The notes under the pieces: generated by a model
Databases searched by the model: none
What the model was told of the DNA's origin: nothing
Seen by the model: the letters and a program-made list of their open reading frames with translations, nothing else
Made by a program: the position numbers and the translations under genes
From: Azoarcus sp. Aa7
Lineage (GTDB): Bacteria > Pseudomonadota > Gammaproteobacteria > Burkholderiales > Rhodocyclaceae
DNA: 30,000 nucleotides
Reading direction: 5' to 3'
Assembly (NCBI GenBank): GCA_014822185.1
Contig: QVLR01000079.1
Coordinates: 101,401-131,400 of the forward strand
Shown here: piece by piece, positions 2,622 through 22,049 of the stretch
Layout: the number at the start of each line of letters is the position of its first letter
How positions within the stretch are numbered: the stretch's first letter is position 1

Positions 2622-2639
2622 CGTGGCGTCCGGTGAAAT

Positions 2640-6116: not shown

Positions 6117-6264
6117 TTCCTTCCTGCTGAGTTGCGTGTCGCGGCCGTCCGGCGTGCGGCACGTCCCTCTATTCCCGGCGTCGCGACACCGTGGCGCCCC
6201 CATGTGTTCCGGTTGCCGCGGCGCGCGGCGACGCCCCCCCTCCTTTCAAGTGGTCAGGTGCGCG

Positions 6265-6295
6265 GGTCGCACGGGTGTTTTGCGACCTTGTTCTG
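6265..6295 (+). terminator. Possible weak intrinsic terminator after the TIM-barrel gene
   Basis: 7-bp stem GGTCGCA/TGCGACC (6265-6271 / 6281-6287) followed by TTGTTCTG. Short stem and interrupted T-tract. Confidence 0.3.
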
Positions 6296-6322
6296 AAAAA
6301 CAAAACAAGGTTCTAAAAGCGG

Positions 6323-6351
6323 TTGCACTGTGAAGAATTGCGTTCTATTAT
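6323..6351 (+). promoter_or_regulatory. Sigma70-type promoter TTGCAC-N17-TATTAT for the CoA-transferase operon, with operator-like box GAATTGCGTTC in the spacer
   Basis: Read directly: TTGCAC 6323-6328, 17-nt spacer, TATTAT 6346-6351, ATG at 6405. The 11-mer 6335-6345 is the exact reverse complement of 16349-16359. Confidence 0.5.
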
Positions 6352-6404
6352 TCGATCAACGTGACAGGATCGATGTTGATCCACAGTGAACTAAGGGGTA
6401 GCAC

Positions 6405-7607: not shown

Positions 7608-7609
7608 AC

Positions 7610-8449: not shown

Positions 8450-8539
8450 CCCCGGCTTCGCAAGTGACGGCATAGCGCACGGGTTCGCCCGTGCCGACAT
8501 CGAAACGGAAATGACATCCAAATCTGGAGGCGACGCCAA

Positions 8540-10300: not shown

Positions 10301-10310
10301 GCTTCCCGTG

Positions 10311-10331
10311 GGGCGGGACTTGATCCCGCCC
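10311..10331. repeat. Single REP-like hairpin GGGCGGGActtgaTCCCGCCC directly after the ThDP gene
   Basis: Same GGCGGGA-N5-TCCCGCC stem as the repeats at 20887, 20933, 21953 and 22003. May double as a transcript-stabilising or terminator hairpin. Confidence 0.5.
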
Positions 10332-10398
10332 TGCGCGCCCCCGACCCCAACCCCGACAGACAGCGTTATCAGGCATCGAACAAGAGAAGGAAGCTTCC

Positions 10399-11259
10399 AT
10401 GGACAATGCAGGACCGAACCCGCTGTCGATCTCCGGTTCGACGCTCCTCTACCCGGTCATCGGCTACCCGGTGGGCCAGGTAAAGGCGCCGATTCTGTAC
10501 AACAAGCTGTTCGCCGCGACCGGTATCGATGCGGTGGTGGTGCCGCTGGAGATCGCGCCGGCCGACTTCGCGAGAGTCGGGCCGGCGCTTTTTGCCGTTT
10601 CCAACGTGCGCGGCGCGATGATCACGATCCCGCACAAGCCCGCGTGCGTCGATTTTCTCGACGCGGCGAGCGCCGCGGTGAGGGCCGCCGGCGCGTGCAA
10701 CGCGATCGTCAAGCGCGCGGACGGCACGCTCTTCGGCGATCTCTTCGACGGCGTCGGCTTCGTACGCGGCTTGAAGCGCGCGGGCGTCGAGCCGAGGGGC
10801 ATGCGCTGCCTGGTCGTGGGCTCGGGCGGCGTCGGTGCGGCGATCGCCGTGGCGTTGGGCGAGGCCGGCGCGGCGAGCGTGGGCGTGTCGGACATCAGCG
10901 CCGACAGCGCGGCACGGCTTGCAGGGCGGCTCGTGAGCTTCGGCGTGTGCCGCGAGGCCTTCGTCGCGACGAACGACCCCGCGGGCTACGATCTCGTCGT
11001 CAACGCGACACCGCTCGGGCTCAAGGAGAGCGATCCGCTGCCGGTGCCGGTCGAGCGCCTCGCGCCCGGCACGGTGGTCGCGGACGTCATCATGAAGATC
11101 GACTTCACGCCGCTCCTGCTCGCCGCGCGTGAGCGCGGCTGCACGATACACATGGGGCGGGAGATGTTCATCGAGATGGCGCCGCTGTATCTTTCGCTGT
11201 TCGGTTACGACGGCTACACCTCCGACGGCATCCGCAAGCTGGTCGGCTACAAGGATTGA
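10399..11259 (+). CDS. Shikimate/quinate dehydrogenase-family oxidoreductase (non-canonical substrate motifs)
   Basis: 286 aa. Shows the AroE/YdiB architecture: ITIPHK (catalytic Lys), GACNAI, GDLFDGVGF (catalytic Asp), Rossmann VVGSGGVGAAIA, NATPLG. The N-terminal HSxSP/SRTP carboxylate-binding motif reads GQVKAP, and NTD reads LFD. Confidence 0.8.
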   Translation: MDNAGPNPLSISGSTLLYPVIGYPVGQVKAPILYNKLFAATGIDAVVVPLEIAPADFARVGPALFAVSNVRGAMITIPHKPACVDFLDAASAAVRAAGACNAIVKRADGTLFGDLFDGVGFVRGLKRAGVEPRGMRCLVVGSGGVGAAIAVALGEAGAASVGVSDISADSAARLAGRLVSFGVCREAFVATNDPAGYDLVVNATPLGLKESDPLPVPVERLAPGTVVADVIMKIDFTPLLLAARERGCTIHMGREMFIEMAPLYLSLFGYDGYTSDGIRKLVGYKD

Positions 11260-11324
11260 GGACAGGGCGGGTGCGGCCTGCGGGCCGCGCGGGCGCCCGT
11301 TTCGAATTGACGAGGAATCAAGTG

Positions 11325-12107
11325 ATGGCATTTACCCGTGCTCTGGAAGTGAAAGGCAAGCCGGTCGGCGAAGGCAAGGAACCGCTGGTGTGCGCACCGC
11401 TGGTCGGCCGTGACGAGGCCGGCGTGCTCGGCGAACTCGACGCGATCGTCGCGAAGCAGCCCGATCTGCTCGAATGGCGCGTCGATTTCTTCGCTGGCAT
11501 CGCCGATACCGGCCGAGTCGTGGAACTGGCGCAGGAAGTCCGCAAGAGCTCGGCGGGAATTCCGATCATCTTCACGCGCCGCTCGATCCGCGAAGGCGGC
11601 GAGACGATCGGCATCTCGGAAGAGCAGGTGCTTGAGATGTACCAGGCGGTCGCGCGTTCGGGCGCGGTCGATTTCCTCGACTACGAGCTGTCGTGCGAGC
11701 CGAAGCATTTCGCCGCCGCTGTCGAACTTGCCCGCGAGACCGGCACGAAGCTGATCGCGTCCTTCCACAACTTCCAGAAGACCCCGTCGGCCGAGGAGAT
11801 CGTCGCGAAGTTCGTCTCGATGGAAAAGGCCGGCGCGGATGTCGCGAAGGTCGCGGTGATGCCGCAGGGGCTCGAGGACGTGCTGACCGTGCTGCAGGCG
11901 ACGCTGGACGGACAGAAGAAGATCTCGCTGCCCATCATCAGCATGTCGATGGGCGCCTACGGCTCGCTCTCGCGCCTGTTCGGCTGGGTGTTCGGTTCGT
12001 CGGTGAGCTTTGCGGTCGGGCAGAAGGCGTCGGCTCCGGGACAGGTGCCGATCGAGGATCTGCGACGCGTTCTCGACGTGCTGCAGCGTTCGCTCGCCGG
12101 AAAGTAA
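11325..12107 (+). CDS. aroD: Type I 3-dehydroquinate dehydratase
   Basis: Start at ATG 11325 behind GAGGAA. Collinear with E. coli AroD as I recall it: LEWRVD, IFTRRS..EGG, SFHNF (His143 equivalent), ADVAKVAVMP (Schiff-base Lys170 equivalent), ISMSMG, ASAPGQ. Confidence 0.9.
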   Translation: MAFTRALEVKGKPVGEGKEPLVCAPLVGRDEAGVLGELDAIVAKQPDLLEWRVDFFAGIADTGRVVELAQEVRKSSAGIPIIFTRRSIREGGETIGISEEQVLEMYQAVARSGAVDFLDYELSCEPKHFAAAVELARETGTKLIASFHNFQKTPSAEEIVAKFVSMEKAGADVAKVAVMPQGLEDVLTVLQATLDGQKKISLPIISMSMGAYGSLSRLFGWVFGSSVSFAVGQKASAPGQVPIEDLRRVLDVLQRSLAGK

Positions 12108-12157
12108 GTTCCGCGCCGGGAGGCGCGGCGGCGTAGAATCCCGCGCCCCCAATTCGA

Positions 12158-12197
12158 GCCGCATCCGGCCCGCTTCTGCGGCCCGGATGCGGCTTTT
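12158..12197 (+). terminator. Rho-independent terminator after aroD
   Basis: 16-nt arms GCCGCATCCGGCCCGC / GCGGCCCGGATGCGGC (one mismatch), loop TTCT, followed by TTTT (12194-12197). Confidence 0.7.
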
Positions 12198-12217
12198 GCA
12201 TTTCCCGGAATCCCCCC

Positions 12218-12967
12218 ATGACCTTCGATACCGCAGGCTGGATCGTCGCCGGCATTGCCGTGCTGCTCACCGGCATCTCCAAGTCCGGCCTCGGCGGCGC
12301 CTTCGGCGGGCTCGCCGTGCCCTTCATGTCGCTGTGGATCACGCCCGTCCAAGCGGCGGCGGTGATGCTGCCGTTGCTCGTGTTCATCGACTGGATCGGG
12401 ATCCGGGCGTACTGGCGCAGATGGTCGAGCGAGGAAATCCGCCTGCTGCTGCCCGCCGCCGCGGTTGGCATGCTGGTCGGGACGGTGGTGTTCGGCTGGA
12501 TGCCGGAGAAGGCGGTGAAGGGCTGCGTCGGCGCGATCGCCGTGCTGTTCGCGCTCGACCGGATCTTCGGGCTGCGCGCCCGGCTCAAGCTTTCGGGGCC
12601 GCCGGGGAAGGCCACGGGGCTGTTCTGGGGCGCGGTGTCGGGCTTCACCAGCACGATTGCGCACGCCGGTTCGCCGCCGCTGCTCGTGTATCTGCTCAAC
12701 CGTGGCCTCGCCAAGGACACTTTCGTCGCGACCACGGTGATCTACTTCACTGCGGTCAACGCCGTGAAGATCGTGCCCTATGCGGCGCTGGGGCTGTTCA
12801 CGTGGGAATCGCTGAAGATGTCGCTGCTGCTCGCGCCGATCGCTCCCGTCGGCGTGTGGATCGGCCTCAAGGCGCTGAAGCGCATCCCGGAACGGGCGTT
12901 CTTCGTGTTCGCGACGGCGATGCTAGGGCTTTCCGGCGTGAAGCTGCTGTGGGATGCGTTCGCGTGA
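12218..12967 (+). CDS. TSUP (TauE/SafE) family anion-exporter-like membrane protein
   Basis: 249 aa, about 8 hydrophobic segments, duplicated G-rich motifs (GISKSGLGGAFGGLAVP; GFTSTIAHAGSPPLLVYLL). Confidence 0.85.
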   Translation: MTFDTAGWIVAGIAVLLTGISKSGLGGAFGGLAVPFMSLWITPVQAAAVMLPLLVFIDWIGIRAYWRRWSSEEIRLLLPAAAVGMLVGTVVFGWMPEKAVKGCVGAIAVLFALDRIFGLRARLKLSGPPGKATGLFWGAVSGFTSTIAHAGSPPLLVYLLNRGLAKDTFVATTVIYFTAVNAVKIVPYAALGLFTWESLKMSLLLAPIAPVGVWIGLKALKRIPERAFFVFATAMLGLSGVKLLWDAFA

Positions 12968-12970
12968 GCC

Positions 12971-13912
12971 TCAACCGAGCTGCGGCTGAAGCATCCAGAT
13001 CACCGCGCTCACCGAGAAGAAGGCGCTGATCGTCGTGGCCATCAGCGCGGCGGCGGGGAGTTCCTCCTGGCCGAAGCGCTGCGCGATGATCGGGAAGATG
13101 CTCGCCATCGGCATGCAGGCGAAGGCGATCGCCGCGACGCGCAGCGTCGGATCGAGCGGCGGCAGGAGCGTCAGCGCGATGAACACGAAGAGCGGGTGAA
13201 GGACGAGCTTGCCTGCGACGATTTGCGCGATGTCGCGGCGCATGCCGCGGACCTTGATGCCGACCAGCGTCCCGCCGATGACGAAGAGCGCCACACCCGC
13301 CGCGGCGAGCGAGAGCATGTCGATGGAGCGCGCGACCGGAGCGGGCAGGCGGATGCCCAGCAGCGCGAGGCTGAAACCTGCGACGATGGCGATGATGAGC
13401 GGGTTTTTCGCAAGCCGGGTGAAGGTCTCGATCACCACGCGATGAATCTTCTTGCCGTCACCCCCTCTGCTCTCGGCGAGCGCCAGCGTCAGCGGCACGA
13501 TCAGCAGGTTCTCGACGAGGAAGCACAGCGCCAGCGCGATGCCGGCCGCCGGGCCGACGACCTGCAGCACGATCGGGTAACCGATGAAGCCGCTGTTCGA
13601 CAGGGACATGCCCATGCCGTGCACCACGCCGGTCTGCAGCGTTTTCTTCTGCACGAGGCGCGCGAAGCCGATGCCCGCGGCGAAGGCCGCAAGCGAGCCG
13701 AGCGTGTAGGCGGTCAGGTAGCCGACGTTCATGATCTCGGAGAAGGGACGTTCGGTCAGCGCTTTCAACAGCATCGCCGGCAGCGCGATGTTGATCGCGA
13801 ACTTGCCGAGGATGCGCGTCTCGCTCTTGTCGAAGAGGCCGTTGCGCACCGCGGCGAAGCCGATCGCGATGACGAGGAAGGCCGGGCCGGTGATCAAAAA
13901 AACGTCGAGCAT
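12971..13912 (-). CDS. AEC (auxin efflux carrier) family transporter
   Basis: ORF 12971..13960. I prefer the start at M17 (ATG 13912, MLDVFLITGPAFLVIAIGF), the typical AEC N-terminus. Polytopic throughout. Confidence 0.85.
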   Translation of the reverse strand: MLDVFLITGPAFLVIAIGFAAVRNGLFDKSETRILGKFAINIALPAMLLKALTERPFSEIMNVGYLTAYTLGSLAAFAAGIGFARLVQKKTLQTGVVHGMGMSLSNSGFIGYPIVLQVVGPAAGIALALCFLVENLLIVPLTLALAESRGGDGKKIHRVVIETFTRLAKNPLIIAIVAGFSLALLGIRLPAPVARSIDMLSLAAAGVALFVIGGTLVGIKVRGMRRDIAQIVAGKLVLHPLFVFIALTLLPPLDPTLRVAAIAFACMPMASIFPIIAQRFGQEELPAAALMATTISAFFSVSAVIWMLQPQLG

Positions 13913-13969
13913 GGGTGCAATCCGGAGGGGTGCGCGGAGCATAACACCGGGGTGTGGCATGTCCGCGAA

Positions 13970-14497
13970 CTAGACGAGTCCGAGGGCTCCCGCCGCCGCG
14001 CCGGCACCGATGTACCACAGGGGGTGCCAGCTGCGCACGGACATGAGGCCGGTGCACGCGAGCGTCAGCAGGATGCCGCGCAGGTCGAGTCCCGCCGAGG
14101 CGCCGATCAGCCAGCCGCTCGTACAGACCAGGCCCACGGCGAGGGGGGCGACGCCGGTCTGGATCGCCTCGCGCCACGGTGCGTCGCGGAAGCGTTCCCA
14201 ATGCCGGTAAAGAAAGAAGATGACCAGGCTCATCGGCAGGCTGATTGCGAGTGTCGCGGCGATCGCGCCCGGGATGCCGGCAACCTTCCAGCCGATCAGC
14301 GACACGACCAGCAGGTTGGGCCCCGGTGCGGCCTGGGCGATCGCGAAGAGGTGGGCGAAGGTGGTTTCGTCCATCCACTGGCGCTGCTCGACGACGACGC
14401 GGTGCAACTCGGGCAGCATCGCCGTGATGCCGCCGAAGGCGACCACGGTGAGGATGCTGAACTGCAGGAAAAGATCGGCGAGCAGCGCCACCGTCAC
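13970..14497 (-). CDS. Short-chain chromate-ion-transporter (CHR) family protein, C-terminal-type half
   Basis: 175 aa. CHR signature: AFGGITAMLPELHRVVVEQRQWMDETTFAHLFAIAQAAPGPN. Confidence 0.85.
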   Translation of the reverse strand: MTVALLADLFLQFSILTVVAFGGITAMLPELHRVVVEQRQWMDETTFAHLFAIAQAAPGPNLLVVSLIGWKVAGIPGAIAATLAISLPMSLVIFFLYRHWERFRDAPWREAIQTGVAPLAVGLVCTSGWLIGASAGLDLRGILLTLACTGLMSVRSWHPLWYIGAGAAAGALGLV

Positions 14498-15126
14498 GAG
14501 TCCGTTTTCGCGGTTGTGGCTAGCCCCGCCGCGCGGCGCGCGCGCCTATAGGCGATGAGGCCGGTCATGCCGAGCAGCGCCAGCATCAGCGGCGGCAGCG
14601 GCAGGCGCAGGATCACCAGCGCAACGAGGATCAGCGCCGCGAAGGGCAGGTAGATCCACCGCTCGGGCACGTTGCGCGCCATCTTCAATGCTGTCGCGAA
14701 GAGCAGTCCCGCGCCGGCGGCCGCGATGCCGCGCAGCATGTCCTGCACGACGGCGAGGTGACCCCAGACGCCGTAGGCGGTCGCGAGCGCCATCATCACG
14801 AGGAAGGGGCCGAGCAGCAGTCCGGAGGTCGCGACGATCGCGCCGCGCGCACCGTGGAAGCGCGCGCCCACGCACACGGCGAGATTGACGACGTTGGAGC
14901 CGGGCAGGAACTGGCACAGGCCGAGCAGGGCGTTGAAATCGGCGCCGCTCATGAGACGGCGTTCCTCGACGAGGAGATGCCGCAGCAGCGGCAGCACGCC
15001 GCCGAAGCCCGACAGGCCGACGCGCGAGCACGCGAGGAAGAGTTCCCACAGACCGGGCTGGCGCGACAGCTCCTGGTGAGGGGACCCCGGTTCCGGCGCG
15101 ACCGGGGCGGCAGGGGAGTTACTCAT
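14494..15126 (-). CDS. Short-chain CHR family protein, N-terminal-type half
   Basis: Start at M70 of ORF 14494..15333 (ATG 15126, MSNSPAAP). CHR signature GLSGFGGVLPLLRHLLVEERRLMSGADFNALLGLCQFLPGSN. Its stop overlaps the next gene's ATG (ATGA, 14494-14497), as in paired SCHR genes. Confidence 0.85.
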   Translation of the reverse strand: MSNSPAAPVAPEPGSPHQELSRQPGLWELFLACSRVGLSGFGGVLPLLRHLLVEERRLMSGADFNALLGLCQFLPGSNVVNLAVCVGARFHGARGAIVATSGLLLGPFLVMMALATAYGVWGHLAVVQDMLRGIAAAGAGLLFATALKMARNVPERWIYLPFAALILVALVILRLPLPPLMLALLGMTGLIAYRRARRAAGLATTAKTDS

Positions 15127-15253
15127 GCGTCCGGCGCTCCAGGGGCGGCGCTGCGGCGCGGGCAGGGGAAGACTCCCTCCGCGCCGCAGGCGAGGATGAG
15201 GTGCGCGGACGACGGCGGGAGGGGAGGGAGTGCCGAAGCCCGCGCGGAGGAGA

Positions 15254-16090
15254 TCAGGCCGCCGACCGGCGCAGGTACTCGTCGTGCAGGCCGTCGAGGT
15301 AGGCCTCGGCGGCGCGGATCGAGCGGCGCGCACGCTCCTCGGCGCTGACCGTCAGCGCGAGGGTGTCGGTCGGGATTTCCAGCGAGTAGGGCATTTCCGG
15401 CATCGCGTCGAGGATGCTGCGCACGTCGATGCCGCCTTCGCCGAGGAAGTTGCGTTCGCTGCGGGCGGTGTGGATGAGGCCTTCGACGGTCGTCGGGATC
15501 TCGGCCGGGGCGTCGCACACCTGCGCGAAGTGGAACCACTCGGGCGGCAGCTTGCGCAGTTCCTCGACGCTGTCGCGGGCGCGGTCGAAGTGCAGCGTGT
15601 CGACGAGGATGCCGGCGTTCGGGCGATTCACCGCGCGCACGACGGCAGCCGCCGCGGCGAGGTTCGGCGTTTCCGTCCAGCTCGGGTACTCGAGGTCGAC
15701 GGTGAGCTTGTAGGGCGCCGCGAGGTCGCACAGGCGGCCGAAACGATCGGTCGCGCGTTCGCGGTTCGCGTCGGGGAGCTGGGCGAGGATGTGGCGGGCG
15801 CCGAGTTCGGCGGCGGCTTCCAGTACGGACACATAGGTCTCGGGCTCGATCTCCGCGGGCATGCGGCAGAGTTCGATGTCGAGCACCTTCACGCCCGTTG
15901 CGGCGAGGCGCGCCTTCACCTCGTTCATCATCGCGCGGTCGTTCTGCAGCGCGAACACGTGTTCGGTCGCGGTGACCGCAGTCAGCCGGAAGCTGACGAA
16001 GTCGTAGCCGGTCTTTGCTGCGATCTCGACCATTTCGGCCGGGGACGTCGTCAGGACCGAGAGGTGGGCGAGGGAGAATTGGTGCGCCAT
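15254..16090 (-). CDS. Sugar-phosphate isomerase/epimerase-type (xylose-isomerase-like) TIM-barrel protein
   Basis: Start at ATG 16090 (MAHQFSLAHLSV) behind a strong GGAGGT RBS. The pattern of barrel motifs (LDIE, LEYP, VDTLHF, SLEIP) is typical of the AP-endonuclease-2/IolE/DSD fold. Confidence 0.8.
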   Translation of the reverse strand: MAHQFSLAHLSVLTTSPAEMVEIAAKTGYDFVSFRLTAVTATEHVFALQNDRAMMNEVKARLAATGVKVLDIELCRMPAEIEPETYVSVLEAAAELGARHILAQLPDANRERATDRFGRLCDLAAPYKLTVDLEYPSWTETPNLAAAAAVVRAVNRPNAGILVDTLHFDRARDSVEELRKLPPEWFHFAQVCDAPAEIPTTVEGLIHTARSERNFLGEGGIDVRSILDAMPEMPYSLEIPTDTLALTVSAEERARRSIRAAEAYLDGLHDEYLRRSAA

Positions 16091-16247
16091 GTCTGGACTA
16101 CCTCCAATAGTGAATGCCGGGGAGCGGCTGCACCGTTTTGCCGATAGTTGCATTAAAGCCTGCGTCGGCTATTTCTGCTGCGCCGGGGGCCACTTCCGGG
16201 GCCCAAGCGAGCAGATCGGTACGACCGATCAAATCTGTGATGAGCTA

Positions 16248-16276
16248 AATATAGAACACGGTTGCGCGAAACGCAA
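16248..16276 (-). promoter_or_regulatory. Sigma70-type promoter TTGCGT-N17-TATATT (minus strand) for the TIM-barrel gene, with box CAACCGTGTTC in the spacer
   Basis: Read directly from the reverse complement of 16248-16276. It has the same architecture as the promoters at 6323 and 16337. The leader to the ATG at 16090 would be about 150 nt. Confidence 0.4.
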
Positions 16277-16336
16277 CGAAAGTTCGTTAAATAGGTTCGA
16301 GGTGCAAAACCATATTGCGCGCAGCGGATTTACGCG

Positions 16337-16365
16337 TTGACAAAACATGAACGCAATTCTAAAGT
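16337..16365 (+). promoter_or_regulatory. Sigma70-type promoter TTGACA-N17-TAAAGT for the IclR gene, with box GAACGCAATTC in the spacer and a perfect-arm palindrome GAACAaTGTTC (16367-16377) at about +1
   Basis: Read directly. Consensus -35, 17-nt spacer, 4/6 -10, ATG at 16401. Confidence 0.5.
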
Positions 16366-16400
16366 GGAACAATGTTCAAGTTTTAAAGCGAGGTGCGGAG

Positions 16401-17231
16401 ATGGCTGGAAGTCTTCTTGCCCGTGCGATGGGAGCGCTGGAGCTCCTCGCCGAAGAGTCGCGCGGACTGCCGTTGCAGGAGATCGCCGATCGCCTGGGGA
16501 TGCCGAAGAGCGGGGCGCACCGCCTGCTGGCCGAGCTGATCCAGCTGCGCTACGTCGCGCAGGATGCGGATTCGGCGCGCTATCTCCTGACGACGCGCCT
16601 GATGTCGCTCGGCTTCAAGCTGCTCGGCAACAGCGGCTTCGTCGAGATCGTGCAGCCCGTGCTGAACCGCCTTGCGACCGTGAGCGGTGAGCTCGTGCGC
16701 CTGGCGGTCGTCGACAACGGGCGTCTTCCGTTCATCGCCAAAGCGCAGGGGGCACGCAGCGGCCTGCGCTTCGACCCGGACATGGGCGGCGAGGCGGCGC
16801 TGTACTGTTCGTCGAGCGGCATGATCTGGCTCGCGAGCCTGCCCGAGAACGAGGCGATCGAGCACGTCGTGCGCCAGGGCTTCACTCTGCCCGAGCAGCG
16901 CGGCGCCCGCGCACCGAAGACGATCGCCGAGGTGATGGCCTTTGTTACGGACGCCCGCGAGCGCGGCTACAGCCGGGCGATCGAGACCTGGGGCCCCGGC
17001 ATGTCATCGATGGCCGCGACCGTGCGTGACCCGCACAGCGGACGCGTCACCGGCGTTGTCAGCATCGCCGGGCCCACGGTACGCCTGACCGAAGAAGCGA
17101 TGGAAAAGCTCGCGCCCGAACTCTTCGCGGCAGCCGAGGAGCTGTCCTCGGTCAGCGCCCTTTCCGAATACCTCAGAAGCATCAATCCGGCCGCGGGACA
17201 GCCCGCGTCGGGCTCTCAACGCGCGGCCTGA
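16401..17231 (+). CDS. IclR-family transcriptional regulator
   Basis: Start at ATG 16401 (MAGSLLARAMGALELL) behind GAGGTGCGGAG. HTH LPLQEIADRLGMPKSGAHRLLAEL, and C-terminal effector domain (ALYCSSSGMIWLA ... MSSMAATV ... GVVSIAGP). Confidence 0.9.
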   Translation: MAGSLLARAMGALELLAEESRGLPLQEIADRLGMPKSGAHRLLAELIQLRYVAQDADSARYLLTTRLMSLGFKLLGNSGFVEIVQPVLNRLATVSGELVRLAVVDNGRLPFIAKAQGARSGLRFDPDMGGEAALYCSSSGMIWLASLPENEAIEHVVRQGFTLPEQRGARAPKTIAEVMAFVTDARERGYSRAIETWGPGMSSMAATVRDPHSGRVTGVVSIAGPTVRLTEEAMEKLAPELFAAAEELSSVSALSEYLRSINPAAGQPASGSQRAA

Positions 17232-17280
17232 CGCGCCTCCTCAAGCAATCGCAGCCAAGGCACCACTGGAGACATCGAAA

Positions 17281-18453
17281 ATGGATTTCAACCTTTCTTC
17301 CGAACAGAAAATGCTCGTCGAGACCGTGCGCCGTTTCGTCGAGAACGAAATGCTGCCGCTCGAAGACGAGATCGAGGAAACCGGCCGCCTCGCGCCGGAG
17401 AAGGCCCGTGCGCTGTTCGAGAAGTCGAGCGCGAACGGCATGTACGCGATGAACATCCCCGAGGAGTTCGGCGGCGGCGGCCTGTCGGCGGTCGACACGA
17501 TGCTCGTCGAGGAGCAGTTCGGCCACGCGAAGGACATCCTGATCCGCCGCGCCTTCGGCAACGTCTATGAAGTGCTGCTGAAGTGCGACGCCGCCCAGCG
17601 CGAGCGCTGGCTGCTGCCGGCGGTGCGTGGCGTGCGTACCTGCTCGATCGCGATCACCGAGCCGAACGCCGGCTCCGACGCGGCGGCGATCAAGACGCGC
17701 GCCGTGCCCGATGGCAAGGGCGGCTGGAAGATCAGCGGCGGCAAGCACTTCATCAGCGACGGCGAGTTCTCGGACTTCTTCGTCGTCTCTGCAGTCACCG
17801 ACCCGAGCGCCGGCGCGAAGGGCATCTCGCTCTTCCTCGTCGACAAGGGCACGTCCGGCTTCATCATCGGCCGCGACCAGAAGATGATGGGCCTGACCGG
17901 CACGAGCCACGTCGAGCTCGCGTTCGATGAAGTTCCGGTCGGCCCGGAAAACCTCCTCGGCGGCGAGGGGCAGGGCTTCAAGCTGATCCTCGAGACGCTC
18001 GGTCGCGTACGCCTCGCCCAGGTGTGCGCCCGTGCCGTCGGCAAGTCGGTGCGCCTGCTGAACCTGATGATCTCCTACGCTCAGGAGCGCAAGCAGTTCG
18101 GCAAGCCGATCGGCGACTTCCAGATGATCCAGCAGATGATCGCGGACAGCGTGGTCGAGATCAACGCGTCGCGCCTGCTGGTGCTGGACGCCGCCAACGA
18201 CATCGACCACGGCGTCGACGCCCGGGACAAGATCTCGATGGCCAAGTTCTACGTCGCCGAAGTGCTCGGCCGCGTCGCCGACCGCGCGGTGCAGGTGTAC
18301 GGTGGCATGGGCTACTGCGCCGATATGCCGATCGAGCGCATGTACCGCGACGCGCGCATCTACCGCATCTTCGACGGCACTTCCGAGATTCATCGCACGG
18401 TCGTCGCGCGCAGCGCGATGAAGCATGGCGAAGCGCTGTACGGAACGATCTGA
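17281..18453 (+). CDS. Acyl-CoA dehydrogenase (FAD-dependent, ETF-linked type)
   Basis: 390 aa. ITEPNAGSD, GGKHFISDG, QFGKPIGDFQ, YGGMGY, and the catalytic-Glu motif RIFDGTSEIHR. Confidence 0.9.
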   Translation: MDFNLSSEQKMLVETVRRFVENEMLPLEDEIEETGRLAPEKARALFEKSSANGMYAMNIPEEFGGGGLSAVDTMLVEEQFGHAKDILIRRAFGNVYEVLLKCDAAQRERWLLPAVRGVRTCSIAITEPNAGSDAAAIKTRAVPDGKGGWKISGGKHFISDGEFSDFFVVSAVTDPSAGAKGISLFLVDKGTSGFIIGRDQKMMGLTGTSHVELAFDEVPVGPENLLGGEGQGFKLILETLGRVRLAQVCARAVGKSVRLLNLMISYAQERKQFGKPIGDFQMIQQMIADSVVEINASRLLVLDAANDIDHGVDARDKISMAKFYVAEVLGRVADRAVQVYGGMGYCADMPIERMYRDARIYRIFDGTSEIHRTVVARSAMKHGEALYGTI

Positions 18454-18466
18454 TCGTCCGACCGAG

Positions 18467-18558
18467 CGTAGGGCGGAAAAGCGAAGCGCCTTCCGCCGGA
18501 TGTTGGCGGCGGGCGGCCCCCATGCGGCGGATTACGCCTTCGGCTCATCCGCCCTACG
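18467..18558. repeat. REP-like composite palindromic element (outer arms CGTAGGGCGG...CCGCCCTACG, two internal imperfect hairpins)
   Basis: Read directly: CGTAGGGCGGAAAAGCGAAGCGCCTTCCGCC ... GGCGGATTACGCCTTCGGCTCATCCGCCCTACG. It shares the GTAGGGCGG terminus with the elements at 20887 and 21953 but has different hairpin interiors. Confidence 0.6.
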
Positions 18559-18584
18559 CGTTCCCGGTAATCATGGAGTGTGAC

Positions 18585-20114
18585 ATGACCATCAACAAAT
18601 TCATGAGCGCGGCCGACGCCGTCGCGCTCGTCCGGGACGACGACACCGTCGGCCTGATCGGCGGCGGCGGCGGCCTCGTCGAAGCTTCATGCATCTTCGC
18701 GGCGCTCGAAAAGCGCTTTCTGGAAATCTCGCAGCCGCGCAATCTGACCGTGGTCCACGCCCTCGGCATCGGCGACAAGAAGACCAAGGGCATGAATTGC
18801 TTCGCCTACGAAGGCATGGTCAAGCGCGTGATCGGCGGCCATTGGGTGTGGTCGCCGCGCATGCAGGAGCTGGCGCGCGACGAGAAGATCGAGGCCTACG
18901 TGCTGCCCGGCGGCGTGATCGCGCAGCTCTTCCGCGAGATCGGTGCCGGCCGGCCGGGGCTGCTGACGCATGTGGGTCTTGGAACATTCGTCGATCCGCG
19001 CATCGATGGCGGCAAGATGAACAAGTCGGCGAAGGAAGACCTCGTCGAGGTCGTCGAGCTCGGCGGCAAGGAATACCTGCGCTACAAGCCCTTCCCGGTG
19101 AACGTCGCGATCATCCGCGGCTCCTACGCCGATGCGCACGGCAACATCTGCATGGACCAGGAACCGGCGAACCTCGACGCCTACGCAGTCGCGCTCGCTG
19201 CGCACAACTCGGGCGGCAAGGTGATCGCGCAGGTGCGCACCGCGGTCGATGTCGGCACGCTACCGGCGCGCTCGGTGCGCATCCCCGGCGCGATCGTCGA
19301 TGCCGTCGTGGTCGATCCTTCGCAGTCGCAGAGCTACGACATCGTGTATGACCCGACGATCTCCGGCGAGCGCCGCGGCCCCGTCCCGCATGAGGCGCCG
19401 CAGCCGCTGTCGGTGCGCCAGGCCACGGCACGTCGCGCGGCGGAAGAGCTGCGCGACGGTGCGGTCATCAACTACGGCGTCGGCGTGCCCGACGCGGTCG
19501 CGAAGCTCGTCGCGGCGCGGGGTGACCTCGACCGCTACTACCAGACGATCGAACACGGCACCTACGGCGGCAACCTGCTCGACGGCATGCTGTTCGGCTT
19601 CGCGCGCAACGCCTCGGCGATGATCGATGCGCCCTCGCAGTTCGACTTCTATTCCGGCGGCGGGCTGGACATCGCCTTCCTCGGTTTCGGCGAGTTCGAC
19701 CGGCACGGCAATGTGAACGCGTCGAAGCTCGGCGGTCTCACCGTCGGCCCCGGTGGCTTCATCGACATCGCGCAGAACGCTCGCAAGGTGGTGTTCTGCG
19801 GCAACTTCGACACGAAGGGTTCGAAGCTCGCGACCGGCCACGGCGAGCTGCACGTGGAGCGCAACGGCGATGTATCCAAGGTCGTCGCCGCTGTAGACCA
19901 GATCACCTTCTCCGGTCCGCAGGCGGTCGTGCGCGGGCAGGAGGTGCTCTACATCACCGAGCGGGCCGTCTTCCGCCTGACCCAGGACGGCGTCGTGCTG
20001 GAAGAGATCGCACCGGGTGTCGACCTGCAGCGCGACATCCTCGACCGGATGGGCTTCAAGCCGCTGATGCCGAAGCAGCCCAGGGTGATGAGCGTCGAAC
20101 ACTTCAAGGAATAA
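18585..20114 (+). CDS. Family I CoA-transferase with fused alpha/beta halves (YdiF / propionate-CoA-transferase type)
   Basis: Start at ATG 18585 (MTINKF; alternative ATG 18573). About 509 aa. VGLIGGGGG, VIGGHW, RGSYADAHGNI, and a candidate catalytic Glu in QTIEHGTYGG. Its length and single-chain organisation match YdiF/Pct rather than two-subunit AtoDA/ScoAB. Confidence 0.85.
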   Translation: MTINKFMSAADAVALVRDDDTVGLIGGGGGLVEASCIFAALEKRFLEISQPRNLTVVHALGIGDKKTKGMNCFAYEGMVKRVIGGHWVWSPRMQELARDEKIEAYVLPGGVIAQLFREIGAGRPGLLTHVGLGTFVDPRIDGGKMNKSAKEDLVEVVELGGKEYLRYKPFPVNVAIIRGSYADAHGNICMDQEPANLDAYAVALAAHNSGGKVIAQVRTAVDVGTLPARSVRIPGAIVDAVVVDPSQSQSYDIVYDPTISGERRGPVPHEAPQPLSVRQATARRAAEELRDGAVINYGVGVPDAVAKLVAARGDLDRYYQTIEHGTYGGNLLDGMLFGFARNASAMIDAPSQFDFYSGGGLDIAFLGFGEFDRHGNVNASKLGGLTVGPGGFIDIAQNARKVVFCGNFDTKGSKLATGHGELHVERNGDVSKVVAAVDQITFSGPQAVVRGQEVLYITERAVFRLTQDGVVLEEIAPGVDLQRDILDRMGFKPLMPKQPRVMSVEHFKE

Positions 20115-20129
20115 CAGGAGATATTGCGA

Positions 20130-20879
20130 ATGAAAGTACTGGTTCCTGTAAAGCGGGTCGCCGATTACAACATCAAGGTGCGCCCGAAGTCCGACGGTTC
20201 GGGCGTCGAGCTTGCGAACGTGAAAATGTCGATGAACCCCTTCGACGAGATTGCCGTCGAGGAGGCGGTGCGGCTGAAGGAGGCGGGCGTCGCGACCGAA
20301 GTCGTCGCGGTGTCCTGCGGGACCGCCGTATGCCAGGAAACACTGCGGACGGCGCTCGCAATGGGCGCGGACCGCGCGATCCTCGTTGAAACCGACGTCG
20401 AGCTGCAGTCGCTCGCGGTCGCGAAGCTGGTCAAGGCGGTCGCCGAGAAGGAAGGCGCTCAGCTCGTGATCTGCGGCAAGCAGGCGATCGACGACGACGC
20501 CAACCAGACCGCGCAGATGCTCGCGGCGCTGCTCGACTGGGGGCAGGCGACCTACGCGTCGAAGGTGGTCGTCGCCGACGGCAATGTCGAAGTGACGCGC
20601 GAGGTCGACGGCGGCCTCGAAACCGTCCGGGTCGCGCTGCCGGCCGTGGTCAGTGCCGACCTGCGCCTGAACGAGCCGCGCTACGCGACGCTGCCCAACA
20701 TCATGAAGGCGAAGAAGAAGCCGCTCGAGACGCTCAAGGCCTCCGAGCTCGGCGTCGACATCGCGCCACGCGTGCAGATGCTGTCGGTCTATACGCCGCC
20801 CGAGCGCAAGGGCGGCATCATGGTCGGTTCGGTCGCCGAACTGGTGCAGAAGCTCAAGGACGAAGCCCGCGTGCTGTGA
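20130..20879 (+). CDS. etfB: Electron transfer flavoprotein, beta subunit
   Basis: ATG 20130 is 9 nt after CAGGAG (the track start at 20124 is a TTG). [18 protein letters not shown] ... [14 protein letters not shown] ... [10 protein letters not shown]. Confidence 0.9.
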
Positions 20880-20886
20880 CGATGGA

Positions 20887-20956
20887 CGTAGGGCGGGATG
20901 AAATCCCGCCGAATGGGCCGTGCCGCAGTTCCGGCGGGATTTCATCCCGCCCTACG
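20887..20956. repeat. REP-like doublet: perfect 24-bp inverted repeat CGTAGGGCGGGATGAAATCCCGCC / GGCGGGATTTCATCCCGCCCTACG separated by 22 nt
   Basis: Read directly. Each arm is itself a hairpin (GGCGGGA-tgaaa-TCCCGCC). The element lies inside the etfB-etfA intergenic gap. Confidence 0.8.
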
Positions 20957-21003
20957 GATTAGCGGGATTGCCTTGATAGTGTGAGGATTACGAGAGGATC
21001 CAG

Positions 21004-21957
21004 ATGAAAAGCCTGATCATTGCAGAACAGACCGGCGGCCAGCTCTCGCCGATGACCGGAAACCTCGTCGCCGCCGCATCGAAGATCGGTGGCGAGATCG
21101 ACCTGCTGCTGGTGGGCGCGTCCGGCGTCGCCGCGGCGGCCGAACTGGCGCGCGCCTTTCACGGTGTGACCCGCGTGCTGACAAGCGAGTCGGCGGAATA
21201 CGACGGTTTCACGGCCGAGAACGTCGCGCCGCTGGTGGTCCAGCTCGCCGGCAACGGCTACACCCACATCCTTGCGATCGCTTCCGCCGCGGGCAAGAAC
21301 CTCCTGCCGCATGTCGCCGCGCGGCTCGACGTCGGCATGGTCAGCGAGATCGTCGAGGTCGTCGATGCGGAGACCTTCGTGCGCCCGATCTACGCGGGCA
21401 GCCTGCTGGCGAAGGTGCGCTGCGCCGAACGCGTGCGCGTGCTGTCGGTGCGCGCGACGGCCTTCCCGGCGGTGGAGGCGGGCGGTAGTGCGGCCCCGAT
21501 CGAGGCGGTCGCCGCGAGCGGCGAGCGTGGCAAGTCGAAGGTGATCGGCCAGCAGCTCGCACAGTCCGCTCGTCCCGAGCTGACGGCTGCCCGCATCATC
21601 GTCGCGGGCGGTCGTGGCCTGGGCTCGGCCGAGAATTTCGCCGGCACGATCGAGCCGCTCGCCGACAGCCTCAACGCCGCGGTCGGCGCGTCGCGCGCTG
21701 CGGTCGACTCCGGCTACGTCTCGAACGAAATGCAGGTCGGCCAGACCGGCAAGATCGTCGCGCCCGAGCTCTACGTCGCGGTCGGCATCTCCGGCGCCAT
21801 CCAGCACCTCGCGGGCATGAAGGACAGCAAGGTCATCGTCGCGATTAACAAGGACGAGGAAGCGCCGATCTTCCAGATCGCCGACTACGGTCTCGTCGGC
21901 GACCTGTTCCAGCTCGTGCCTGAGCTGACGCAGGCGATCGCAGCCGCGCGGACGTAG
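21004..21957 (+). CDS. etfA: Electron transfer flavoprotein, alpha subunit
   Basis: 317 aa. C-terminal FAD-binding signature [49 protein letters not shown]. Confidence 0.9.
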
Positions 21958-22024
21958 GGCGGGATGAAATCCCGCCGCACCCATAAATACATCATTCGGT
22001 TCGGCGGGATTCCATCCCGCCCCG
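21953..22024. repeat. REP-like doublet, second copy (left arm identical to 20887-20910, right arm with 3 mismatches, 26-nt AT-rich spacer)
   Basis: Read directly. The left arm starts at 21953, so the etfA TAG stop (21955-21957) is the TAG of CGTAGGGC. Confidence 0.7.
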
Positions 22025-22049
22025 CGGCCCCCGACAGGATCCTCCCCGC

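Follow-up and report, generated by a model that had tools for sequence, protein, structure and literature searches.

A stretch of 30,000 nucleotides from Azoarcus sp. Aa7 (Rhodocyclaceae; GenBank assembly GCA_014822185.1, contig QVLR01000079.1, positions 101,401 to 131,400), hereafter the window, carries genes of the shikimate dehydrogenase (SDH) and type I 3-dehydroquinate dehydratase (AroD) families in the vicinity of a block coding for an acyl-CoA dehydrogenase (ACAD), a CoA-transferase of the YdiF family and the two subunits of an electron-transferring flavoprotein (ETF). Comparative analysis of gene-neighborhoods indicates that these hydroaromatic genes and the YdiF-type CoA-transferase/ACAD pair are functionally related and not chance neighbors. 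We consider it likely that the island that houses them serves hydroaromatic-acid metabolism as a whole, the YdiF-type transferase and the ACAD included, and we tentatively read the region from 3.2 to 22.9 kb of the window as a single catabolic island for quinate/shikimate-type hydroaromatic ring acids, organized in two separately regulated units. In these terms the finding is a hydroaromatic catabolic cluster that would build undescribed chemistry out of known enzyme families. Among plant acids, quinate and shikimate rank with the most abundant. The sole textbook bacterial route aromatizes them to protocatechuate, whose breakdown then usually needs oxygen, whereas gut flora and isolates that live by fermentation turn them into dihydroshikimate and cyclohexanecarboxylate.

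Genes were called from third-position GC content (GC3) and from Pfam and NCBIfam scans of the window, exact starts being partly set by the homologues in Azoarcus sp. KH32C. Exact-sequence look-up returned no record for the window proteins, and their gene context was taken from homologues. The scans confirmed the five families that an earlier note on this DNA had placed in it, at the following positions:

10399-11259, plus strand: SDH-family dehydrogenase of a distinct subclass (Pfam Shikimate_dh_N, E 1.9e-17)
11325-12107, plus strand: type I 3-dehydroquinate dehydratase, AroD (DHquinase_I, E 3e-69)
17281-18453, plus strand: ACAD (four Pfam ACAD domain matches)
18585-20114, plus strand: single-chain family I CoA-transferase of the YdiF family, CoAT1 (Pfam CoA_trans)
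20130-20879, plus strand: ETF beta, EtfB (Pfam ETF; start set by the KH32C homologue)
21004-21957, plus strand: ETF alpha, EtfA (closest to the human/Paracoccus respiratory type)

An anchor scan with the window CoA-transferase, using one genome per species, recovered 507 relatives. The analysis covered the best 80 of their loci (67-97% identity), and shares were computed on the 42 loci, all from different species, that have complete 10-kb flanks. An SDH-family gene, a dehydroquinase or the dehydroshikimate dehydratase QuiC lies near the CoA-transferase in 33 of these 42 loci (79%), against a chance expectation of about 2% per 21-kb window, a figure that we estimated by taking a 5-Mb genome to hold about 5 such markers. 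Taken singly, an SDH-family gene is found in 30 of the 42 (71%), an orthologous ACAD in 20 (48%) and a dehydroquinase in 13 (31%). The latter is nearly always of type II, and its standing in for the type I enzyme in most loci is a case of non-orthologous displacement. The earlier note had argued, from the window and E. coli, that such linkage marks a functional unit. These counts bear the argument out, as does the subgroup of YdiF itself (see below), and the link extends well past those two genomes into several phyla. Among the 80 loci, GFO/IolG-like genes accompany the CoA-transferase in 45, and genes for enoyl-CoA hydratases (ECH) and short-chain dehydrogenases/reductases (SDR) are common beside it; its recurrent neighbors include neither a thiolase nor a hydratase-lyase/aldehyde dehydrogenase set for side-chain shortening. 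The combination of both ETF and AroD with the CoA-transferase is confined to the Aromatoleum/Azoarcus group.

The tightness of the association is illustrated by a contig on which genes for an ABC transporter, an ApbA-like reductase, an SDR, the ACAD, a small protein, the CoA-transferase, a GFO/IolG-like dehydrogenase, an SDH-family enzyme and a type II dehydroquinase follow each other, the last four of the enzyme genes, from the CoA-transferase onwards, being separated by gaps of 5-22 bases. At least three operon architectures surround the CoA-transferase. In class A, seen in many Alphaproteobacteria, the order is LacI, FAH-type hydratase, SDR, TIM barrel, dehydroquinase II and ECH, followed by MaoC, SDR, ApbA, ACAD, CoA-transferase, GFO and SDH. 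Class B, from Rhizobiaceae, Bosea, Castellaniella and Comamonas, displays two IclR genes, SDH, an ABC transporter, MaoC, CoA-transferase, an aldo-keto reductase and a full-length QuiC. Class C comprises Aromatoleum/Azoarcus, arranged as in the window. The minimal version comes from Telmatospirillum, where the locus consists of an MFS transporter (52% identical to E. coli YdiN), a full-length QuiC, IclR, ACAD, CoA-transferase, the ETF:quinone oxidoreductase (ETF-QO), EtfB, EtfA and a second MFS transporter. Beyond the ACAD/transferase pair, the only ring enzyme in this locus is thus the dehydratase using dehydroshikimate, and the presence of ETF-QO indicates that the system runs in the oxidative direction. 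One record titled Leptospira interrogans LS0056 (loci L012 and L082) has a transferase operon whose products share 80-94% identity with those of a Proteobacteria metagenome-assembled genome (L013) and is probably a contaminant or mislabelled.

A second line of evidence comes from the subgroup of the family to which YdiF belongs. In E. coli the order is ydiN ydiB aroD ydiF ydiO, ydiP (on the opposite strand) and ydiQRST fadK (b1691-b1701), as the earlier note had stated for its ydiB-aroD-ydiF-ydiO-ydiQR part. The transferase of Enterococcus raffinosus shares 59% identity with YdiF and 46% with its counterpart in the window, and its gene is the first of an operon for the CoA-transferase, MaoC, an ApbA-like reductase, a VOC protein and a type II dehydroquinase. 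Three further Bacillota all share the core of CoA-transferase, MaoC and ApbA-like reductase together with a type II dehydroquinase, which ends the operon in Anaerovirgula and Anaerostipes and lies a few kb upstream in Bacillus. Anaerovirgula additionally has SDH, a type I dehydroquinase and a Tct transporter, with an aldehyde dehydrogenase and a thiamine diphosphate (ThDP) enzyme downstream; Anaerostipes has SDH, a type I dehydroquinase and MFS and TRAP transporters; and Bacillus sp. OxB-1 has a ThDP enzyme, an aldo-keto reductase, IclR and LysR regulators and a ChrA-like transporter. Linkage of the YdiF subgroup to dehydroquinase or SDH genes is hence found in E. coli and in all four of the sampled Bacillota. 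The involvement of two transferase lineages, both dehydroquinase types and several phyla makes chance or simple inheritance untenable as an explanation. More distant, plasmid-borne members of the YdiF family occur in contexts of polyhydroxyalkanoate (PHA) synthesis, butyrate formation, fatty-acid-like metabolism and SDR/TIM/ECH genes, and because these contexts are so varied the family as a whole is not hydroaromatic.

Some further observations concern these relatives. Both dehydroquinase types occur in one locus in Anaerovirgula (L184, 1376-2149 and 12486-12923) and Anaerostipes (L186, 1672-2439 and 11499-11948), one lying beside SDH and a transporter and the other ending the CoA-transferase operon, which hints at different substrates. 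A record of E. coli OHT76-1 labelled as a plasmid (L089, 6475-15398) contains an island with TetR, an SDR, a sugar-phosphate-isomerase-like TIM barrel, ECH, a YdiF-family CoA-transferase (52% identical to that of the window), a 693-residue FAD-binding protein and a TRAP transporter; as the island is located between ytfB and rplI, it looks chromosomal. Janthinobacterium and Caballeronia (L088 and L175) carry the same SDR/TIM/ECH/transferase set along with a gene of the dihydrodipicolinate synthase (DHDPS) family.

CoAT1 is a single polypeptide with both halves of the transferase and retains the catalytic glutamate (YdiF E333), which places it among the YdiF-type enzymes; YdiF, its sole solved relative (448 bits), is 44% identical to it over 502 residues. 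Nevertheless, CoAT1 falls in a subgroup apart from that of YdiF, with 68-75% identity within it and 42-46% to the YdiF subgroup. The ACAD possesses the Pfam N, M and C domains of the fold (247 bits to 5OL2_C) and is most similar to AcrC, Bcd and CarC; in its motif IFDGTSEI, an aspartate replaces the canonical catalytic glutamate of Y-E-G-T. Among 39 CoA-transferase-linked orthologues nearly all have aspartate at this position, with one glutamate and one unaligned, and E. coli YdiO has glycine. Because this aspartate-for-glutamate exchange is a conserved active-site change, it suggests a substrate unlike straight-chain acyl-CoA. The protein falls under the equivalog cut-offs for cyclohexanecarboxyl-CoA dehydrogenases (AliB type and Syntrophus/Geobacter type), scoring 149 against 575 on TIGR03207 and 254 against 650 on NF043006. 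EtfA matches human ETF (1EFV, 333 bits) and the Paracoccus protein (1EFP, 316 bits), and is far weaker against the bifurcating types (CarE 165 bits, Bcd-associated Etf 144 bits; the lowest score among CarE, Bcd-associated Etf and LctC is 129). Judged by these scores, the window ETF is of the ordinary respiratory type, feeding ETF-QO.

The correspondence with E. coli, which the earlier note had described as the same five families, accordingly holds at the family level, whereas the ACAD, ETF and SDH belong to different subfamilies. Identity between the window and E. coli proteins is 44% for the CoA-transferase, 40% for AroD, 32% for the ACAD, 31% for EtfA, 27% for EtfB and 25% for the SDH, and orthology with E. 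coli seems to hold for two of them alone, the CoA-transferase and AroD. The ACAD attains 208 bits against 537 on PRK12341, which we take to be the YdiO model; on the NCBIfam FixA/FixB-type models that we likewise take to represent YdiQ and YdiR, EtfB scores 79 against 338 and EtfA 109 against 528 bits. Because the window EtfA is human/Paracoccus-like and far from both the bifurcating ETFs and the FixB-type models, the window and E. coli systems, if they share a chemistry, probably run in opposite redox directions.

The SDH-family protein falls under the cut-off of every NCBIfam model for shikimate or quinate dehydrogenases (best 160 against 252; YdiB models 64-71 against 349-515), and its closest solved relative is 4K28, a "shikimate dehydrogenase family protein" (150 bits). 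Its catalytic dyad, Lys65 and Asp102, and Asn86 (E. coli AroE numbering) are invariant in the window protein and in all 121 subclass members examined. By contrast, Ser14, Ser16, Thr101 and Tyr215, which bind the carboxylate and hydroxyls of the substrate, have given way to Val or Phe, Ala, Phe and Met respectively in 111-121 of the 121. The SDH genes of the alphaproteobacterial class A operons retain the canonical carboxylate-binding residues. In this the subclass resembles the RifI class, whose Pseudomonas putida member is poorly active on shikimate and quinate. AroD is conventional: it passes TIGR01093 (210 against a cut-off of 139) and conserves all of E86, H143, K170 (the Schiff-base lysine), R213, S232 and Q236 in E. 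coli numbering.

In the window these two genes lie near the end of a plus-strand operon at 4381-12967 (unit 1), which is under a divergent IclR gene. A second IclR gene heads the operon of ACAD, CoA-transferase, EtfB, EtfA and an EamA transporter, and diverges from a minus-strand group that separates the two operons and consists of an AEC transporter, two half-size ChrA-like genes and a TIM barrel (TIM2); we designate 12971-22931 as unit 2. The earlier note had seen transporters and an IclR regulator between the two halves; they are indeed present, and the conserved TIM2 gene has to be added to them. The remaining genes of unit 1, the two regulators and TIM2 are as follows:

3218-3931, minus strand: IclR regulator 1 (IclR1), PcaR/PcaU-like (Pfam HTH_IclR and IclR_C), divergent from the left operon
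4381-5205, plus strand: 4-hydroxyphenylpyruvate dioxygenase (HPPD)-like VOC protein, resembling the C-terminal domain of QuiC (Pfam Glyoxalase_5 and Glyoxalase)
5247-6116, plus strand: TIM-barrel protein, similar to the dehydroshikimate dehydratase domain at the N-terminus of QuiC (Pfam AP_endonuc_2)
6405-7607, plus strand: family III CoA-transferase, CoAT3 (Pfam CoA_transf_3, E 2e-122)
7610-8449, plus strand: citryl-CoA-lyase-like protein with a short citrate-synthase fold (frame from GC3; 3 bp after CoAT3)
8540-10300, plus strand: ThDP enzyme of the acetolactate-synthase-like group (three TPP_enzyme domains)
12218-12967, plus strand: TauE/SafE-family anion permease (Pfam TauE), the final gene of the left operon, after SDH and AroD
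15254-16153, minus strand: TIM2, a TIM barrel of the sugar-phosphate isomerase/epimerase fold (Pfam AP_endonuc_2; likely start near 16087)
16401-17231, plus strand: IclR regulator 2 (IclR2; Pfam; the open reading frame opens at 16347 with a likely start at 16401; the KH32C homologue has 276 residues)

The HPPD-like open reading frame opens at 4102, and its likely start near 4381 agrees with a GC3 signal from about 4350 and with the 274 residues of the KH32C homologue. Its product matches positions 282-468 of the QuiC model (126 bits against a cut-off of 1200) and is 39% identical to the C-half of full-length QuiC, while the adjacent TIM barrel matches positions 5-251 (154 bits against the same cut-off of 1200) and is 36% identical to the N-half. 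Instead of a fused protein of about 635 residues above the equivalog cut-off, the window has two genes in swapped order; the same split and swapped halves are seen in KH32C and contig L096, and fused QuiC occurs in other loci of the transferase family. The earlier note's proposal of a route distinct from the classical conversion of quinate to protocatechuate holds only in part, as the island codes for both QuiC-like halves as well. CoAT3 scores under every NCBIfam equivalog cut-off. The lyase passes NF004864 (461 bits against a cut-off of 261), the name of that family being annotation only, and its best solved relative is the citryl-CoA lyase 6HXP (147 bits). The ThDP enzyme, of which A. diolicum 22Lin has a 94% homologue, lies under all NCBIfam cut-offs (acetolactate synthase, ALS, 432 against 538; Xsc 317 against 620; Gcl 318 against 791), and is further from oxalyl-CoA decarboxylase (Oxc) and 2-hydroxyacyl-CoA lyase (HACL; 175-195 bits) than from ALS. 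An assignment as orthologue of cyclohexane-1,2-dione hydrolase, to which the A. diolicum homologue lent some appeal, was rejected (2PGN 169 bits, plant ALS 276 bits). A sulfonate pathway, to which the TauE permease, an Xsc-like ThDP enzyme and SauS-like aldehyde dehydrogenases (see below) might point, was also set aside, as the ThDP enzyme reaches half the Xsc cut-off and the partners are dehydroquinases and SDH.

Unit 1 is conserved on its own, and in some genomes adjoins the ACAD/CoA-transferase unit in one of several arrangements. Betaproteobacteria commonly have homologues of the window SDH, at 51-58% identity. Of three contexts sampled, two contain a type I dehydroquinase, an aldehyde dehydrogenase, the lyase, the ThDP enzyme, a TIM barrel, a TRAP transporter and IclR, with no ACAD, YdiF-type transferase or ETF within 10 kb; the third adjoins protocatechuate 4,5-cleavage genes. 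A metagenome scan with the lyase recovered 481 relatives, of which 44 loci of at least 6 kb were examined. The ThDP gene is directly downstream of the lyase in about 35 of the 44, and the gene directly upstream is CoAT3 in 24 and an aldehyde dehydrogenase in about 17. With SauS, EutE and the N-terminus of AdhE as its closest relatives, this aldehyde dehydrogenase belongs to the CoA-acylating type, and therefore it and CoAT3 would be alternative suppliers of the acyl-CoA on which the lyase acts. Where a lyase-anchored locus extends over at least 14 kb (21 loci), a dehydroquinase is present in nine cases and an SDH-family gene in five. The SDH/AroD pair travels primarily with the trio of CoAT3, lyase and ThDP enzyme and not with the ACAD block. 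In regard to the earlier note, which had treated SDH/AroD and the ACAD block as one unit, the functional relationship stands, with the caveat that in the window the two lie in separate operons whose regulators are only 21% identical. Lyase cassettes without hydroaromatic genes combine aldehyde dehydrogenase, lyase, CoA-transferase and FAD oxidoreductase (Azospirillum, Agrobacterium) or TctABC, CoA-transferase and lyase (Ruegeria), as seen in loci L180, L182 and L183; the lyase may be a general device for splitting citrate-like acids.

The juxtaposition of the two units takes several forms. In KH32C the whole island is syntenic on plasmid pAZKH, with an RHS/IS3 insertion of about 8 kb separating the units, and in A. 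diolicum the stretch examined starts in the ThDP gene and keeps the order of the window. Contig L096 (83-86% identity) sets IclR1, CoAT3, lyase and ThDP against ChrA, ChrA, type I dehydroquinase, TIM barrel, TIM2, IclR2 and ACAD; the shorter L097 matches it up to the dehydroquinase, which in this arrangement sits in the TIM2 operon. In L100, AEC, EamA, ChrA and TIM genes are mixed with the lyase trio, a YdiB-like gene and TauE, and in Castellaniella the ACAD (75%) and TIM2 (72%) adjoin CoAT3 (77%). The ThDP genes that flank the transferase operons of Anaerovirgula (together with an aldehyde dehydrogenase) and of Bacillus sp. OxB-1, and the 46% identity of TIM2 to the TIM barrel of lyase-type clusters, likewise tie the two units to each other.

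The most economical reading of these linkages is a CoA-thioester route acting on quinate/shikimate-like acids or their reduced products. The scheme that we propose for it takes gene content, operon structure, conserved linkages and residue signatures as observed, and each of its substrates and reaction steps by inference from them. In unit 2, the YdiF-type CoA-transferase would load CoA on the ring carboxylate of an acid saturated at C1, such as dihydroshikimate or its 3-oxo form, and the Asp-variant ACAD would form the 1,2 double bond, its electrons passing through the respiratory ETF to the quinone pool; CoA would then be handed to the next substrate molecule, and the shikimate or dehydroshikimate so freed would enter unit 1. 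These steps fit the minimal locus of Telmatospirillum and the respiratory type of the ETF, and also the fact that the window codes for neither a hydratase nor a thiolase. E. coli YdiF, YdiO and YdiQRST, beside YdiB and AroD, would perform the same chemistry in the reductive direction; in that direction it fits the composition of the E. coli block and older reports in which lactobacilli and gut flora reduce quinate and shikimate, with dihydroshikimate and cyclohexanecarboxylate as products. In unit 1, SDH and the type I dehydroquinase would interconvert the substrate with 3-dehydroquinate and 3-dehydroshikimate, and the split QuiC-like pair could aromatize dehydroshikimate to protocatechuate. 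A TIM-barrel dehydratase may act on dehydroquinate, eliminating alpha-proton and beta-hydroxyl as QuiC does on dehydroshikimate, to give a 3,4-dione. The ThDP enzyme might open the C3-C4 bond of this dione without oxygen, in the manner of IolD or cyclohexanedione hydrolase, or cleave the acyloin directly. The ring-opened acid would retain C1 of quinate, a carboxylate-bearing tertiary carbinol as in citrate; CoAT3 or the acylating aldehyde dehydrogenase would yield a homocitryl-CoA-like thioester, and the citryl-CoA-lyase-like enzyme would split it into acetyl-CoA and 2-oxoglutarate or its semialdehyde. By chemical reasoning, this scheme would give each conserved gene of unit 1 one step and need no oxygen.

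Several observations weigh against a single ring-level island. The units are under different regulators, unit 2 stands without unit 1 within 10 kb in A. tolulyticum and A. toluolicum, and lyase relatives that are 60-70% identical turn up in clusters devoid of hydroaromatic genes as well; what is specific is that lyase, ThDP enzyme and dehydroquinate genes come together. An aldehyde dehydrogenase that could handle a ring-opened aldehyde is missing from the window, and the ThDP enzyme, on the scores given above for its solved relatives, is closest to acetolactate synthases and not to IolD. Because the residues that bind the free carboxylate are replaced, the SDH subclass may not use quinate or shikimate themselves. 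ETF, which the earlier note had made the coupling partner of the unit, is not a conserved member of it, being present in 4 of the 42 full loci (10%), and class B operons have the transferase without an ACAD. MaoC almost always adjoins the transferase (27 and 14 loci, and four of four Bacillota), most other lineages carrying it, and it counts against the ring-level scheme because the scheme has no role for a beta-hydroxyacyl-CoA enzyme. The FAH-type 2-oxo-3-enoate hydratase of the alphaproteobacterial operons and the DHDPS-type aldolases of related transferase clusters point to open-chain chemistry, as do the common ECH and SDR genes and the short aliphatic acyl-CoAs used by the solved or characterized relatives of the transferase and ACAD. 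On such grounds, one could retain the hydroaromatic link and have the transferase and ACAD, joined in other lineages by MaoC, ECH and SDR enzymes, activate and beta-oxidize a ring-derived di- or tricarboxylic acid after ring opening. We regard this as rather unlikely: the units of the window and of Telmatospirillum have no hydratase, dehydrogenase or thiolase to carry beta-oxidation on, the Telmatospirillum locus offers QuiC alone and no ring-opening enzyme, a thiolase is missing from the recurrent neighbors, and the proposed products of unit 1, acetyl-CoA and 2-oxoglutarate, require no ACAD.

The altered SDH is open to another explanation, as the loss of carboxylate-binding residues would be expected if its substrate were a thioester. 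Coupled with the lack of the canonical glutamate in the ACAD and with the general standing of Azoarcus and Aromatoleum as anaerobic degraders of aromatics, this could mean that shikimoyl-, quinoyl- or dehydroquinoyl-CoA, made by the transferase, loses water or hydrogen through the ACAD-family flavoenzyme and the dehydratases, and is thereby converted to hydroxybenzoyl-CoA or benzoyl-CoA and fed to the benzoyl-CoA pathway of a denitrifier, mirroring the shikimoyl-CoA synthetase and flavin-dependent dehydratase of cyclohexanecarboxyl-CoA biosynthesis as cited in PMC13304725. We hold such aromatization at the CoA level to be improbable, as a non-redox dehydratase needs no dedicated ETF and ETF-QO, the carriers are mostly aerobic Alphaproteobacteria, some of which encode a QuiC aromatizing the free acid, and the island lacks a thioesterase or ligase. 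A cycle on quinoyl-CoA resembling formyl-CoA transferase (Frc) and Oxc, or 2-hydroxyacyl-CoA lyase, is conceivable, but the ThDP enzyme is nearer to ALS than to Oxc or HACL and the lyase would be left without a role. The two operons and two regulators could instead reflect supra-operonic clustering, in which the ACAD, transferase and ETF oxidize a different plant acid (hydrocaffeate, another phenylpropanoid or a short-chain acid) and lie near the quinate genes as the substrates occur together and both routes funnel to protocatechuate. The model for this is the pca-qui-pob-hca cluster of Acinetobacter, in which hcaD is an ACAD gene clustered with qui genes; the ACAD does resemble the caffeyl-CoA reductase CarC (232 bits) and butyryl-CoA dehydrogenases, and the wider YdiF family is functionally diverse (PHA, butyrate, fatty-acid). 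Yet in most lineages the transferase shares an operon with SDH, GFO and dehydroquinase genes only a few bases apart, hydratase-lyase, aldehyde dehydrogenase and thiolase partners are lacking, and Bacillota operons end in a dehydroquinase gene, all of which makes clustering of this kind quite improbable. That the units came together by chance in one lineage, without functional meaning, can hardly be credited: the solitary right-hand units of A. tolulyticum and A. toluolicum and the restriction of ETF plus AroD to Aromatoleum/Azoarcus would suit it, while the share of full loci with hydroaromatic markers, the independent origin of the linkage in two transferase subgroups and several phyla, and the several gene orders in which the units are juxtaposed speak against it.

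The other features of the island are the following:

4105-4115: candidate operator, a GAAC-N3-GTTC palindrome in the promoter region between IclR1 and the left operon
12971-13960, minus strand: AEC-family (Mem_trans) transporter (Pfam)
13970-15333, minus strand: two half-size ChrA-family (chromate-transporter-like) genes (Pfam Chromate_transp in both)
16367-16377: candidate operator, a second GAAC-N3-GTTC palindrome in the TIM2-IclR2 promoter region
18468-18557: repetitive extragenic palindromic (REP)-like hairpin element in the ACAD-CoA-transferase spacer, with GTAGGGCGG...CCGCCCTAC ends
20888-20955: REP-like hairpin element in the etfB-etfA spacer (124 bp here, 19 bp in KH32C)
22050-22931, plus strand: EamA/DMT-family transporter (Pfam EamA), closing the right operon

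IclR1 scores 104 bits on NCBIfam TIGR02431, under its cut-off, is syntenic in KH32C and has orthologues (56-76%) upstream of CoAT3-lyase-ThDP in metagenome loci; IclR2 shares 21% identity with it. The palindromes are probably IclR operators. The copy at 4105-4115 is at the same place in KH32C and L096, that at 16367-16377 is conserved in place in seven loci (L002, L003, L004, L083, L096, L079 and L084), and in the Castellaniella loci L065 and L068 a copy lies beside IclR. There are two copies in the whole window against 0.46 expected, a count reached in 6 of 100 shuffles. Their conservation and their placement in the two divergent promoter regions would suit co-regulation of both operons through a shared operator; the shuffle result, a core that may be generic for IclR proteins and the low identity of the two regulators speak against it.

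Among the transporters, TauE is syntenic in A. diolicum and KH32C, with a 53% homologue in the same cluster type in L100, and EamA is syntenic in four Aromatoleum/Azoarcus genomes; the AEC gene beside the ChrA pair and TIM2 is conserved in four genomes of this group. The ChrA-like open reading frames span 13970-14497 and 14494-15333 (the second probably starting near 15069), the KH32C genes having 525 and 576 bp. The pair adjoins a TIM barrel again in L096, L097 and L100, a ChrA-like gene follows the CoA-transferase operon of Bacillus sp. OxB-1 (L185, 11960-13153), and L179 belongs with these loci. Because they recur in hydroaromatic clusters from Betaproteobacteria to Bacillus, this distribution suggests that the short ChrA-like transporters carry an organic anion and not chromate. 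The TIM barrel of the lyase/ThDP clusters L093 and L094 shares 46% identity with TIM2, and that of the alphaproteobacterial CoA-transferase operons 34%; to Lmo2234 and IolI, TIM2 is only weakly related.

The ACAD-CoA-transferase spacer measures 131 bp in the window and 24 bp in KH32C. The REP-like elements are confined to intergenic spacers of the ACAD-CoA-transferase-etfB-etfA-eamA operon, expanded to 124-131 bp against 19-24 bp in KH32C; their 9-mer occurs in five copies against 0.18 expected, including one at 21954-21962. At 1464-3161, left of IclR1, a minus-strand gene is aminotransferase/MocR-like and a plus-strand gene codes for a MarR regulator. On the right, the island is followed by an RTX calcium-binding repeat protein (23091-25349, minus strand) and the start of a second one (29662-30000, plus strand); between them, at 27113-29173, a FemAB-like open reading frame on the minus strand overlaps a ComB-like (2-phosphosulfolactate phosphatase) one on the plus strand, and one of these calls is probably spurious. 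Rfam and tRNA scans of the window found nothing.

In a wider perspective, the island might be one instance of a widespread metabolism of quinate and shikimate at the CoA-thioester level in Proteobacteria and Bacillota, gut anaerobes included. We entertain this generalization as a possibility, with more doubt than confidence. It would comprise a YdiF-family CoA-transferase dedicated to hydroaromatic acids; the Asp-variant ACAD or MaoC dehydratases acting on ring thioesters; an SDH subclass acting on a thioester or on a ring with its carboxyl masked, hence the loss of carboxylate binding; and an oxygen-independent ring opening by the ThDP enzyme followed by lyase cleavage at C1 to acetyl-CoA and 2-oxoglutarate. 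If it is true, E. coli YdiF, YdiO, YdiQRST and YdiB would gain a role in the reduction of shikimate or quinate as an anaerobic electron sink, and if the ring-opening model is true, there would be a new oxygen-independent path from a cyclitol acid to acetyl-CoA and 2-oxoglutarate. Either way, the conserved gene sets supply concrete candidate enzymes for the degradation or reduction of quinate and shikimate by anaerobes and denitrifiers, furnish testable hypotheses for generic families (YdiF-type CoA-transferases, the SDH subclass near 4K28, the lyase/ThDP pair and the short ChrA-like transporters) and make the E. coli ydi block directly testable. Our literature search, which left subscription journals largely uncovered, found no catabolic CoA-dependent route for quinate or shikimate, no link between ydiF/ydiO and hydroaromatics, and no ThDP enzyme opening the dehydroquinate ring. 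The earlier note's statement that no such pathway is described hence holds for catabolism, whereas in the biosynthesis of cyclohexanecarboxyl-CoA a flavoenzyme is known to take part in shikimoyl-CoA chemistry.

That biosynthesis (of ansatrienin and omega-cyclohexyl fatty acids), in which a flavin-dependent dehydratase acts after shikimoyl-CoA synthetase (Skyrud, Flores and Zhang 2020, ACS Catal 10:3360, cited as reference 64 in PMC13304725), resembles the island in handling a hydroaromatic ring as a CoA thioester with a flavin enzyme. It differs in being biosynthetic and reductive and in using a CoA ligase where the island has a CoA-transferase, and it is not known to involve an ETF, a dehydroquinase or ring opening. 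The classical qui/qsu pathway (QuiC/QsuB) shares an SDH-family dehydrogenase, a dehydroquinase, both QuiC-like domains and an IclR/PcaR-type regulator; unlike in that pathway, the QuiC of the island is split, swapped and far under the cut-off, and its dehydrogenase is not of the YdiB/QsuD type. Moreover, the classical pathway has no role for seven enzymes of the island: the two CoA-transferases, the lyase, the ThDP enzyme, TIM2, the ACAD and ETF. The E. coli ydi block has the same five Pfam families within about 10 kb and agrees in the transferase glutamate and in all the AroD residues checked. On the other hand, YdiO has glycine where the window ACAD has aspartate, YdiQR are accompanied by YdiS and YdiT, the window SDH belongs to a subclass without the carboxylate-binding residues (25% identity to YdiB), and the block lacks the trio of lyase, ThDP enzyme and family III CoA-transferase, the QuiC-like genes and TIM2, all of which the window has.

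Beyond hydroaromatic systems, the myo-inositol route (IolG/IolE/IolD) and the cyclohexane-1,2-dione hydrolase of Azoarcus present the same combination of a dehydrogenase, an AP_endonuc_2 TIM barrel and a ThDP enzyme, and the same logic of oxygen-independent ring opening; the ThDP enzyme of the island is, however, not an orthologue of IolD or the hydrolase, its dehydrogenase is of the SDH family, and downstream of them CoA activation and a citrate-synthase-fold lyase are found where the inositol route has a kinase and an aldolase. Unit 2 recalls the carnitine (CaiB/CaiA/FixABCX), caffeate (CarA/CarC/CarDE) and acrylate (Pct/AcrABC) modules in its logic of a transferase, an ACAD fold and an ETF, but those are reductive and have bifurcating or FixAB-type ETFs, whereas the ETF of the island is respiratory and the ETF-QO of Telmatospirillum indicates oxidation. 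The citryl-CoA lyase of Hydrogenobacter (6HXP) is likewise a short citrate-synthase-fold lyase, although it serves the reverse TCA cycle and the lyase of the island stands in a catabolic, hydroaromatic context. Finally, formyl-CoA transferase and oxalyl-CoA decarboxylase (Frc/Oxc) parallel the pairing of a family III CoA-transferase with a ThDP enzyme, the ThDP enzyme of the island differing in being nearer to ALS.

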